The translations under genes and the position numbers were made by a program. From Promethearchaeota archaeon (lineage in GTDB: Archaea > Asgardarchaeota > Lokiarchaeia > Sigyniarchaeales > SOKP01), in assembly GCA_048939995.1 (NCBI GenBank), contig JBHLOY010000027.1, positions 1 through 20,562 of the forward strand: a stretch of 20,562 bases of DNA, read 5' to 3'. The notes below the pieces were generated by a model. That model did no database searches. It was not told the origin of the DNA and saw only the letters and a program-made list of their open reading frames with translations. Shown one piece after another: positions 6,175-13,393 of the stretch. The first letter of the stretch is position 1. Each line of letters begins with the position of its first letter.

Positions 6175-7212
6175 ATGAATTTAGATTTCGTCCCCGCGAT
6201 CTTTTATATTGATTTAAATGATTTTAATCGACCTAAATCTTTTTTCTGGTATCCAACACATATTCCAGAAGAATTTAGAAAATTAATCGAGATAAAATGT
6301 AGTGATATCCTTTCAACCGACCAAGCATTTATTCCTGAAATTTTATTAATCTACCCATTTAAAAATCTAAAAACTAAAATTTTAATTAAATATTTTGAAC
6401 GAAATAATTCTAAAAAACAAGCAACCACTAAATCTGCTATAACATTTTTATTCAAGGAAGAAGATGACATTATCTTTTACAGATATCTGAGTTATATTGA
6501 TAAATTCTTCACTGAGACTATTCAAAAGATTATTGAATATGAAGAAAATAATATGGATAATCATATGACTTTTCAAGAAATTACTAAATTACGCAATACT
6601 CTCAACGAAACAGTTGATTATTTACGTTCTAAAAGTAATATAATTATAAAAAATGAAACAAAACCCGAATCTGATGAGGATATCGAAGAAGAACCAATAG
6701 AAAAATTTAAAGTTATTGTTCTAGGAGATCCATCAGTAGGTAAAACATCAACTATCCTTAAGTTTACAGATAATGTTTTTATGAGAGCATACATTCCTAC
6801 AATGGGGTTAAACATAACTAAAAAAAGATTTTTTGTACAAAATAAATCGGTTGAGCTAATTTTTTGGGATATTGGTGGACAAAAAAAATTTGAAACCATC
6901 AGAAAGCAATTCTATGAAGGAGCGAGTGCGTTTCTTCTAGTTTTTGACATAAGCAATCCCGGATCTTTTGCTAATGTCCCAAAATGGTATCAAGACCTTA
7001 AAAACCATCTTCTTAATCCATCCAGAATAGATGGTTATTTAGTAGGAAATAAAATCGATCTAACTAAAAACAGAATTGTAAATCCTATTGATGCAATAAG
7101 GTTAGCTAAGGCATTAAATATTCAATATTTCGAAATATCTGCTTTAACGGGAGTAAATATTGAAGAAGCTTTTTCTAAATTATCTTTTAACTTAATAAAA
7201 TCACAGAATTAG
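6175..7212 (+). CDS. Rab-like small GTPase with N-terminal longin/uDENN-like domain
   Basis: The C-terminal half has G1 GDPSVGKT, G2 PTMG, G3 WDIGGQ, G4 NKID and G5 EISAL, with no C-terminal prenylation Cys. The N-terminal ~150 aa has a longin-like beta/alpha pattern (inferred), followed by an acidic linker. Confidence 0.9.
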   Translation: MNLDFVPAIFYIDLNDFNRPKSFFWYPTHIPEEFRKLIEIKCSDILSTDQAFIPEILLIYPFKNLKTKILIKYFERNNSKKQATTKSAITFLFKEEDDIIFYRYLSYIDKFFTETIQKIIEYEENNMDNHMTFQEITKLRNTLNETVDYLRSKSNIIIKNETKPESDEDIEEEPIEKFKVIVLGDPSVGKTSTILKFTDNVFMRAYIPTMGLNITKKRFFVQNKSVELIFWDIGGQKKFETIRKQFYEGASAFLLVFDISNPGSFANVPKWYQDLKNHLLNPSRIDGYLVGNKIDLTKNRIVNPIDAIRLAKALNIQYFEISALTGVNIEEAFSKLSFNLIKSQN

Positions 7213-8376: not shown

Positions 8377-9483
8377 ATGATAGAAGATTTATTAATAATA
8401 AACGAATCTGGAGCTTTGTTATTTCATTGGGCACCTAACGTAAGTAAAAAGGAAAGCCAACCAGATTTGTTAAGTGGTTTTTTAACTGCAATAGACAGTT
8501 TTGCTTCCGTGGAGAGAGGAGAAGATATTAAATCACTTAAACTCAGAGAAACACAGATCATATTTGAAAAATCCTATGAGAATTTACAAAAAATTACATT
8601 TGTAATAACCACAAAATCTGAACACTTAATTGAGCTTTTACATTCGATTATACACGAAGTTCAAACTAGATTTATAGAAATCTTTAAGGAAGAATTGAAT
8701 AAGGAATTTGATGGAGAAATTACAAAATTTCAAAGCTTTGAAAAAGAGATTTCACAGATAATGATTTCACATGGGATGGATGTGCTAGCTGAATCAGTTG
8801 AAAGAATCGACAGCAATGATATTTTGAAATCAATCATGTTAATTGAACCTAGAAGTGGTTCAATATTCTTTATCCACGCAAAAGAGTATGTAAATAAGGA
8901 AAAAATTAGTTTCCTAATTCCATTACTATTAAATTCTGGACATTTATTATATCAGAAAAACCTTAATGAAAATTTAAGATGGATTCTCATTAATAATGTC
9001 CAGAATGAAAATTTAATAGTGGAACCAAGAAAAAAAATAATAATTGTAAAACAATTTAAATTGGCCTATAATTTTGAAAAAGAGTTTCTAAGTTTAGAAT
9101 TTTTCAAAGAGAAGGACAAATATGTTAAAAAACCCCAAAAATTAAGTGAAAAATTTGAAACTATTAAATGGGATCTAAAATTAAAACAAATCTTCTTAGT
9201 CGATTTAGTAGGAAAAATTTTCTATCAAAAAATGTTTGATGTTGCTTATGATTGCTCTGAATATATTCCTGAAGCCATCAGTCTTTTGACATCATCAAAG
9301 AAGGTAAGTGAAGATGTATATAATAAAAAGTTATTTAATGCTGTAATTGGAGGAGAAAGAATCGTAACCATTTGTCTTAACTTTAACAATTTTGCACTAA
9401 TTTTAATCGGAAATGTTAAAGATTTTAATGAGTTCACATATATTCAAGATACATGCATAAACATTTTTAGACAATTAAAATAA
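8377..9483 (+). CDS. Longin domain protein with two further roadblock/longin-like domains
   Basis: The N-terminus MIEDLLIINESGALLF...DLLSGFLTAIDSFA...FDGEITKF is longin-like. Similar beta-hairpin-G starts recur at LKSIMLIEPRSGSIFF and LKQIFLVDLVGKIFY. Confidence 0.7.
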   Translation: MIEDLLIINESGALLFHWAPNVSKKESQPDLLSGFLTAIDSFASVERGEDIKSLKLRETQIIFEKSYENLQKITFVITTKSEHLIELLHSIIHEVQTRFIEIFKEELNKEFDGEITKFQSFEKEISQIMISHGMDVLAESVERIDSNDILKSIMLIEPRSGSIFFIHAKEYVNKEKISFLIPLLLNSGHLLYQKNLNENLRWILINNVQNENLIVEPRKKIIIVKQFKLAYNFEKEFLSLEFFKEKDKYVKKPQKLSEKFETIKWDLKLKQIFLVDLVGKIFYQKMFDVAYDCSEYIPEAISLLTSSKKVSEDVYNKKLFNAVIGGERIVTICLNFNNFALILIGNVKDFNEFTYIQDTCINIFRQLK

Positions 9484-9562: not shown

Positions 9563-10627
9563 GTGAAAGATATTATGTCTTTACAAATATGGACTGAATT
9601 AATGATTTTACAAACGATTATAGGCTATTCGTTCGCATTGGCTAATGAATTTATTGGTTTATACAACATTAAGGATTTAAACCTAATGAAAGGAGATTTT
9701 ATTGTTGTTAAATACCATAAAAGATATGGATGGATAGAACTATCACTTTTTTACGTATTATTTGCCCAATGTATGTATGCCTTATATTTACATATCATAG
9801 CAGCTGATCCGTATCTTCTAATACCTTCTGGAGTATGGGCTCATACGTGGATCGGTGGTCTAATTGCTACTATTCTCGTCACATTTAAATTTATAGTTGC
9901 TCGATTTAAAAAAGATCAAATATATTTATACGGGATGTATATTGGACCTATTGGTTTTTTAGGGTGGAGTTTAGCGCATTGGACAAGTCTTTTTAACTTT
10001 TATTATATTGTTGTACCAGCTTGGACATTATTAGGAATCTCACCTCTTATTGTACCTGATTCATTTATTTGGGCCGCGATTATTCCATTTATTATTGGTT
10101 CAGGGTTGTTTCTCCTGGTTTTGTTTAGACGGGGTTCCCGAATGAAAGAGAAGGCACGCTTTGCTTTTAATCAGATCGCCTTCTTATTACATGGTGTAAC
10201 TTTCGGCTACGAGAAATCTGCGAAAGATTTACTAGGTACTCCAGCTATTTTTAAATATGTTATACCTAGAACCTATGAATTTATTGAAAAGATGATGGCA
10301 ATGTCAGGCTTTGATATGAAAAAGCTTGAAAAAATGAATCTTCCCGATGCTCTTAAAGAATTTATGAAAATGGCGGAAAGAATCGGTATGGCTGAAAAAA
10401 TAAAAATAAAATGGGAGTCTGATAAATCATTTACAATTGAATCTGTAAATTGTTCAACTGCACAAGTTAGAAGTGTAATGACAAAAGAAGAATTAACTAA
10501 TGCAGTATGTCCCTGGGCCATTTTTGCGGCCTCTATTGCAAATAAAATAACAGGAAAAGAATTAAAAATGGAACCTTCAGATTTTAATGAAATTGGGGCA
10601 ATTACAAAGTTAACCCTAACGGACTAG
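9563..10627 (+). CDS. Polytopic His-containing (putative heme b) membrane protein fused to a C-terminal V4R/MetOD1-like domain; start may be ATG 9575
   Basis: About 5 hydrophobic helices in aa 1-190 with H52, H77, H94 and H139. The soluble tail carries FTIESVNC...CPWA. Confidence 0.6.
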   Translation: MKDIMSLQIWTELMILQTIIGYSFALANEFIGLYNIKDLNLMKGDFIVVKYHKRYGWIELSLFYVLFAQCMYALYLHIIAADPYLLIPSGVWAHTWIGGLIATILVTFKFIVARFKKDQIYLYGMYIGPIGFLGWSLAHWTSLFNFYYIVVPAWTLLGISPLIVPDSFIWAAIIPFIIGSGLFLLVLFRRGSRMKEKARFAFNQIAFLLHGVTFGYEKSAKDLLGTPAIFKYVIPRTYEFIEKMMAMSGFDMKKLEKMNLPDALKEFMKMAERIGMAEKIKIKWESDKSFTIESVNCSTAQVRSVMTKEELTNAVCPWAIFAASIANKITGKELKMEPSDFNEIGAITKLTLTD

Positions 10628-12310: not shown

Positions 12311-13393
12311 TTGAAAATGTCTAGCAAGTCAATTTCTATTCCACCTAATGTTTCAAGTGAATCAATCCTATGTTTATCATATTTTGATTCAATTATTGGA
12401 CCCACTATATTCTATAGCAGCTCACCTATAGATAAGAAAGAACATCCGGATATAGGTAGAATTCTTGAATTTCAAGAAACTGAAGGTAGCTTTATTTTCT
12501 CTTATCGTAAGTATCAAACCATTAATCATATTTTTTATATCGATTCAGAATTCGCTCGAGGTGGAAAAGATCTTTTAATGATAACCTATATGATAAAAGC
12601 GGCTTACTTTAAGGGTGAGATTTCAGACGTTTATAGATATATAGAGTCAAAAATACCAGAACTAGAGGATCTAGCGCGAGATCTTAATAACTTAAAAGCC
12701 TTGCCTGGAATTCTCCATAGTGAAAAAAGTAGAAAAATACGACAAGATTTACTTAGTTTAGGTTCACAAGATTTTCAAAATCAGTTCTTAGAACTTTTTT
12801 ATAAATATTATCAAAAAATTTCTCCCGAAATTCCAGTTCCAACACCTCTAATCGCAAGGGGAGCATTAAAAAAGCTATACATATTTGGACCGCCCAAATC
12901 AGGAAAAACAACACTATTGAAAAATTTGGAGGTAATTCAATTTCTTGAATATAAAGACCCTGAGAAAAAGAGAGATTTGATAAATAAAATCTATGACTTT
13001 ATTATTGAAAACATCGAAATCCTAACATATGAGTGTATTGATGAAGACCGTGAAGGAAAGCAGTTGAAACTCTATGAACAATGCCTAGACAATGCTCAAG
13101 GATTTGTACTAATCTTTAATGCTTCCAAAAAAGATTCTCTAGAAGATACGATTGATATGTTTAATATAATATTAAATAGATGTTTAGATAAGGGCATATT
13201 TATGCCTATTTTAATTATTGGTAATAAATTTTATAATAAAGAGGAAATTAAACCAGAAGATATCTATGAACACTTTAATATAACCGAATTAGCAAACTGT
13301 GGAATGATAGTTCATTATTCCGCAATTAATGTCCTAAATGAGGATGAGAAGATTATTGAAGCTTTAAGATGGATTTTGAAGCAACTAATTTAA
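12311..13393 (+). CDS. Longin/uDENN (folliculin/C9orf72-like) domain fused to a degenerate small-GTPase domain; start may be ATG 12317
   Basis: N-terminal LSYFDSIIGP and NHIFYIDSEFARGG motifs. The G domain has G1 GPPKSGKTT, AQGFVLIFN, ILIIGNKFY and YSAIN, but no DxxG. Confidence 0.8.
   Translation: MKMSSKSISIPPNVSSESILCLSYFDSIIGPTIFYSSSPIDKKEHPDIGRILEFQETEGSFIFSYRKYQTINHIFYIDSEFARGGKDLLMITYMIKAAYFKGEISDVYRYIESKIPELEDLARDLNNLKALPGILHSEKSRKIRQDLLSLGSQDFQNQFLELFYKYYQKISPEIPVPTPLIARGALKKLYIFGPPKSGKTTLLKNLEVIQFLEYKDPEKKRDLINKIYDFIIENIEILTYECIDEDREGKQLKLYEQCLDNAQGFVLIFNASKKDSLEDTIDMFNIILNRCLDKGIFMPILIIGNKFYNKEEIKPEDIYEHFNITELANCGMIVHYSAINVLNEDEKIIEALRWILKQLI

Follow-up and report, generated by a model that had tools for sequence, protein, structure and literature searches.

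The window analysed here, the whole stretch of 20,562 nucleotides of contig JBHLOY010000027.1 (assembly GCA_048939995.1) from a Promethearchaeota archaeon, contains an open reading frame (ORF 12311-13393) whose protein joins an N-terminal longin domain to a C-terminal G domain, and it raises the question of whether an archaeal longin bears the arginine finger of a GTPase-activating protein (GAP) and on which GTPase such a finger would act. A sequence-only reading of the window had proposed a finger of the FLCN/SMCR8 kind at R83, fused directly to a G domain as a Rosetta-stone link between DENN-like GAPs and their targets. What this locus adds is a conserved combination in which the finger is intact and the G domain dead. 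The reading preferred here, with a probability of about 0.45, is that of a longin GAP acting in trans, in which a longin dimer would present R83 to a separate Arf/Rag-like GTPase and the fused pseudo-G domain would serve as adaptor or gate. The coordinates of all features are collected in Table 1. The ATG at 12317 is probably the start, because the close homologues are 358 amino acids (aa) long, as the protein would be from that codon. The homologues of the ORF come from Promethearchaeota (Loki) assemblies. Within the GTDB family of the host, 46 of 55 genomes contain the full-length family, mostly in single copy, and at E <= 1e-30 no match was found in the 195 other Asgard genomes searched. 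The family is lineage-specific.

Table 1. Features of the longin-G protein, its neighbour and the intact fusions of the same genome (G000)
Feature	Coordinates	Strand	Remarks
Whole ORF: longin, linker and degenerate G domain	12311..13393	+	360 aa from TTG
FLCN/NPRL2-type longin domain, aa 16-170	12356..12820	+	AlphaFold2, Foldseek, VIA-align, atlas
FDxxxGP beta1-beta2 hairpin, FDSIIGP, aa 25-31 (F25-D26 and GP motif G30-P31)	12383..12403	+	conservation, spacing
R83 (CGA), candidate arginine finger, beta4-beta5 loop A-R-G-G	12557..12559	+	register, model, conservation
Poorly conserved, flexible linker, aa 171-185	12821..12865	+	predicted local distance difference test (pLDDT) < 50 at 174-186; mean column conservation 0.52
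Degenerate Arf/Rag-like G domain (pseudo-GTPase), aa 186-360	12866..13390	+	Pfam, Foldseek, motif census, tree
P-loop GPPKSGKT	12887..12910	+	intact
Lost G3/switch II: TYECIDED where WDxxGQ is expected	13025..13048	+	register from alignments to intact relatives
G4 remnant GNKF(Y)	13220..13231	+	NK retained; guanine-specifying Asp missing or shifted by one
Neighbouring longin-Rab-like fusion, once suggested as substrate	6175..7212	+	G1-G4 intact; longin without GP motif and Arg
Longin-Rab fusion with GP motif and RRG loop	C17:469967-471016 = L082:3967-5016		G1-G4 intact
Longin-Rab fusion with GP motif and RRG loop	C17:472549-473625 = L082:6549-7625		G1-G4 intact
GP/ARG longin, Rag-like G domain and C-terminal domain	C17:450477-451889 = L081:4477-5889	-	G-domain motifs intact

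A FLCN/NPRL2-type longin with an arginine between beta4 and beta5

The N-terminal domain is a longin of the FLCN/NPRL2 type with a GP motif and a beta4-beta5 arginine; AlphaFold2, Foldseek, VIA-align and the atlas agree on this type, as the sequence-only reading had supposed. Modelled alone, the domain reached a predicted TM score (pTM) of 0.80, with the elements beta1 (18-26), beta2 (30-36), alpha1 (48-53), beta3 (59-65), beta4 (68-78) and beta5 (86-96), followed by helices alpha2 (104-126) and alpha3 (153-170); the full-length model has a pTM of 0.51, and its domain orientation carries no confidence. The best structural matches by Foldseek, VIA-align and atlas are eukaryotic GAP-type longins, the top score of the atlas feature search (0.85) being a lead only. 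At the sequence level, the PDB was searched by phmmer and by profile, starting from four Asgard alignments and two single sequences, and no significant match to FLCN, SMCR8 or NPRL2 resulted; neither did the Pfam Folliculin and NPR2 profiles match the protein significantly. The Folliculin profile was touched by 8 of 119 relatives (best E 0.0026, below the cut-off), and hmmsearch pairs the GP hairpin with the GP of NPRL2 at an E of 0.67, which is not significant alone. A profile search for longer relatives returned the same family again and no eukaryotic protein; weak matches to Afi1 and DENND11 were seen for relatives.

The candidate finger lies in NHIFYIDSEFARGGKDLLMITYM (aa 72-94, 12524-12592), and the positions that had been reported for this stretch, for R83 and for FDSIIGP are all exact. 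The 24-letter FLCN peptide used for comparison in the sequence-only reading is correct throughout and equals residues 153-176 of 6ULG_L, its arginine being R164. On a profile built from 119 Asgard homologues, this peptide takes its best register with R164 on R83 (score 3.3, next -12.9), which agrees with the alignment first proposed; 9 of 2000 shuffled peptides reached that score, a figure that is not an unbiased p-value because the peptide had been chosen for its likeness. The GP motif sits at the start of beta2, and its spacing from F25-D26 is identical to that of W33-D34 and G38-P39 in C9orf72, a spacing published, with W33-D34 as essential residues, in PMC12290439, so that the proposed likeness to C9orf72 also fits. 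An F/W-D motif of the C9orf72 type and an arginine of the SMCR8/FLCN type thus occur on a single chain, which bears features of the catalytic subunit as well as of the holding one.

Conservation follows the same residues. In the close homologues D26, G30, P31, A82, R83 and G85 are invariant (120/120), and among about 105 remote homologues (~25% identity), which came from a profile that itself includes the motifs, G30 is retained in 100%, P31 and R83 in 97% and G84 in 96%, with flanking columns varying freely; F25, N72 and F75 are also conserved there, and other family-invariant residues drift. R83 is strongly conserved at both distances, and none of the computational outcomes that the sequence-only reading had named as refuting it was observed. 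An arginine between beta4 and beta5 serves as a mark for picking candidate GAP-type longins (bioRxiv 10.64898/2026.01.05.697756). Sequence register and secondary-structure place together support R83 as a putative finger at the arginine-finger position, the presumed counterpart of FLCN R164 and SMCR8 R147.

The same arginine may be read as a contact or structural residue of a binding platform, and the protein as an effector, a scaffold or an adaptor resembling a guanine nucleotide exchange factor (GEF), as most longins are. We regard this as somewhat less likely than a GAP acting in trans. Surface residues R66, Q69, T70 and N72 match the invariance of R83 in close homologues, but R66, Q69 and T70 drift in the remote homologues in which R83 stands at 97%. 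By VIA-align Z, FLCN is not clearly separated from non-GAP longins, and the motif is kept in Asgard longins with unrelated partners or none, namely a TIR domain (P0108), a receiver-like domain (P0269) and stand-alone forms; P0108, P0269 and a KH/HP1451 fusion (P0283) are close relatives (53-64% identity) that carry their partner domain in place of the G domain, each known as a single sequence, and may be either true shuffles or assembly chimeras. GEF or sensor roles have been proposed for such domains by Liu et al. (bioRxiv 10.1101/2020.10.19.343400), whereas PMC12290439 describes GP plus Arg as specific to GAP longins in eukaryotes.

A G domain without hydrolysis motifs

In the C-terminal domain a small-GTPase fold is present without the hydrolysis motifs, and the domain is conserved rather than decaying. 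Foldseek gives the Asgard ArfR 8OUN as its best match. Among 107 orthologues the DxxG of G3 occurs in none and the catalytic Gln is likewise absent in all, the switch-I (G2) Thr is present in 18 and replaced by Asn in the protein studied here, and G4, which reads NKFY in this protein, takes the form NKxD in 15 and NKxxD in 62. Column conservation outside switch II is 0.71-0.86, as against 0.82 for the longin. The nearest intact relatives are G domains that are fused to a GP/ARG longin (E 1e-15; Rab-like 1e-8), and the tree places the domain on the Arf/Rag side with a long branch (1.62) and a support of 88/83, which is moderate and unstarred and leaves the exact parent unsettled. The family probably goes back to a longin-Arf/Rag-like fusion that was still intact and in which the G domain later took on another function. 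Conserved C242 and C258 flank switch II (13034-13084, aa 242-258); 11 of the 107 orthologues, mostly those retaining the switch-I Thr, add a CxxC between them, giving four cysteines and a possible zinc site.

The Rosetta-stone claim survives in its first half only: the fusion to a G domain stands, with Pfam Arf (PF00025) matching aa 188-358 at E 6e-6, but the degeneracy of that domain, which the sequence-only reading does not mention, makes it an unlikely target. An arginine finger normally cooperates with the switch-II machinery, and the fused G domain is an unlikely substrate because of this need. A built-in GAP, in which R83 would act on the fused domain of its own chain or of a dimer mate through an unusual route of hydrolysis without DxxG or Gln, is therefore improbable, even though the fusion persists throughout the family, this protein and 90 of 107 orthologues have an intact P-loop, and sister families pair the same longin type with fully intact G domains, so that an ancestor could have worked so. 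The guanine-specifying Asp is mostly absent as well, and R83 is retained even in all 17 of the 107 orthologues in which the P-loop Lys or Thr is replaced. A complex predicted from two longins, GTP, Mg and the G domain of this protein (score 0.00, mark 0.32) carries no weight either way.

Three fusions encoded elsewhere in the same genome (C17:469967, C17:472549 and C17:450477) would make better Rosetta stones, each chain combining a predicted finger with an apparently competent GTPase. Among homologues of C17:469967-471016 (n = 120) the G of the GP motif is kept in 120, the P in 119 and R-R-G in 120, with G1, G2 and G3 intact in 115/115 full-length homologues, and its profile sets GP and RG in register with those of the present longin at E 1.4e-4. 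The Rag-like fusion C17:450477-451889 matches Gtr1_RagA at E 9e-26, and its aa 79-138 are the only segment of the genome touched by Pfam Folliculin; this segment (C17:451476-451655, E 0.007-0.01) was the sole match when the Folliculin and NPR2 profiles were run against the own genome, in a search whose control gave matches in 8 of 14 genomes. Further longin paralogues were observed at L083:4470-5324, L084:3699-4874, C11:146922-147644 and C31:62110-65478; two of these have GP and ARG but no G domain, one has WG replacing RG, and in the remaining one (1122 aa) both motifs are gone and an intact G domain is flanked by two longin-like repeats.

Proposed action in trans and the neighbouring genes

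Under the trans-acting reading, the gene would be a lineage-specific regulator descended from an Asgard longin-Arf/Rag-like GTPase fusion. Known longin GAPs work with two longins; here the longin may pair via beta2/alpha1 with a second one, either its own copy or one of the roughly eight related longins of the genome, such as C28:209470, C5:13699, C11:146922 or those of the three C17 fusions, and the pair would form a pocket like that which seats the GTPase in eukaryotic longin GAPs. A symmetric dimer would be suited by the presence of the F/W-D motif and the arginine on one chain. R83 would then enter the catalytic site of another, intact GTPase, in all likelihood an Arf/Rag-like one, and speed GTP hydrolysis in trans, and the pseudo-G domain could act through partner binding, as a pseudo-substrate block, or as a nucleotide, metal or thiol sensor. 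The Loki longin 8YQG, which has the GP motif, crystallised as a dimer and lacks an Arg in the beta4-beta5 loop. The own genome contains 64 ORFs with intact small-GTPase motifs.

The sequence-only reading had named the fusion at 6175-7212, whose longin is homologous to the one studied here, as the GTPase to be acted upon. In its orthologues within the host genus, GP is absent in 27/28 and the RRG loop is found in none, with G1, WDxxGQ and NKxD present in all. Of 80 orthologous loci, many of them incomplete, 5 have the gene within the flank examined; across 28 genomes drawn from six other genera, 20 of these genomes containing the family of the present protein, the motif-less type was never the best match; and the tree derives 6175-7212 from the C17:472549 paralogue. 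As a dedicated substrate 6175-7212 was rejected, and as a dedicated partner it is not supported. On the same counts, and with a Rab-like G domain in 6175-7212 as against an Arf/Rag-like one in the present protein, a FLCN-FNIP2-like heterodimer in which R83 would switch off the G domain of 6175-7212 is most unlikely, despite the complementarity of a live longin with a dead G domain and a dead longin with a live one, and despite a distance of ~5 kb between the genes here and in the closest relatives. The product of 6175-7212 offers a natural finger-less control for intact longin-GTPase fusions. A conserved GTPase neighbour was likewise rejected (4/80 loci), and no other intact GTPase adjoins.

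Around the orthologues of the gene, ~33 of 80 loci contain a thiol-redox cluster (HEAT protein, glutaredoxins, ferredoxin-thioredoxin reductase-like and flavodoxin-like proteins) and ~42 a different gene set. It would be a long shot to see in this protein a prokaryotic single-gene longin GAP, a symmetric homodimer to which each chain contributes the F/W-D motif and the arginine finger, gated by a pseudo-GTPase with a cysteine/metal-sensor switch II within the thiol-redox cluster, and modelling the homodimeric ancestor of FLCN-FNIP, GATOR1 and C9orf72-SMCR8. Within the window, 8377-9483 encodes a 368-aa protein without a Pfam match, whose nearest family-labelled atlas clusters are roadblock/longin (0.82, a lead only) and which is possibly a partner longin; 9563-10627 encodes a membrane protein whose soluble tail contains cysteine, and the two occur together near the orthologue at 10 of 80 loci.

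Relation to known longins and significance

Asgard longins of the FLCN/SMCR8 type with a GP motif and an arginine finger have already been published (Novak Vanclova, Jackson, Dacks, Traffic 2025, PMC12290439, section 2.6, Fig. 5D), and novelty of the motif as such was accordingly rejected. They resemble the present protein in the longin fold, the beta1-beta2 GP and the place of the arginine, and that section proposes that they act as GAPs for ArfR or Rag GTPases, a role that this protein may share; the passages on Asgard longins make no mention of a G-domain fusion or a pseudo-GTPase, both features of this protein. In MK-D1, 26 of 74 GTPases carry roadblock or longin domains, with longin-GTPase fusions (Tran et al. 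2024, PMC10933270), and NPRL2-like longins have been recombined with a wide range of other domains (Liu et al., bioRxiv 10.1101/2020.10.19.343400). The Asgard fusions share the arrangement of an N-terminal longin and a Ras-superfamily G domain in one ORF; the arginine finger is not discussed in these two sources, and the G domain at this locus differs in lacking G2, G3 and most of G4. The protein belongs to both groups, and its domain type and fusion are largely anticipated in the literature.

The longin of human FLCN (FLCN-FNIP2, a RagC/D GAP; 6NZD, 6ULG, 8DHB), taken with NPRL2 (GATOR1) and SMCR8 (C9orf72 complex), shows 13-15% identity to it, and these proteins possess a C-terminal DENN or NPRL-type domain where it has a G domain. 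The monomeric DENN GAPs Avl9, DENND6, DENND11 and Afi1 place their arginine finger between longin beta4 and beta5 (bioRxiv 10.64898/2026.01.05.697756), a position common to the present longin, but they grip the GTPase switches by cDENN, which is missing here together with the full longin, cDENN and dDENN module. With no DENN part, the protein lies outside the FLCN/SMCR8/NPRL2 families proper and, judged by its motifs, is not an active GTPase; it probably works like a longin GAP subunit. A literature search found no GAP activity test for any Asgard longin, in keeping with the earlier remark that none has been demonstrated for Asgard DENN-like domains, and no description of this pseudo-GTPase family.

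With a G domain of its own that seems inactive, the protein is not a good choice for a first test; the question of a built-in GAP is directly testable in C17:469967, C17:472549 and C17:450477, where a candidate finger and a competent GTPase share a chain. Should an Asgard longin prove to be a GAP that works by an arginine finger, the chemistry of FLCN-FNIP, GATOR1 and C9orf72-SMCR8, which underlies mTORC1 nutrient signalling and lysosome traffic, would predate eukaryotes. This idea is already in print, and the present protein contributes to it an example that is small and soluble, as well as a variant with a pseudo-GTPase.
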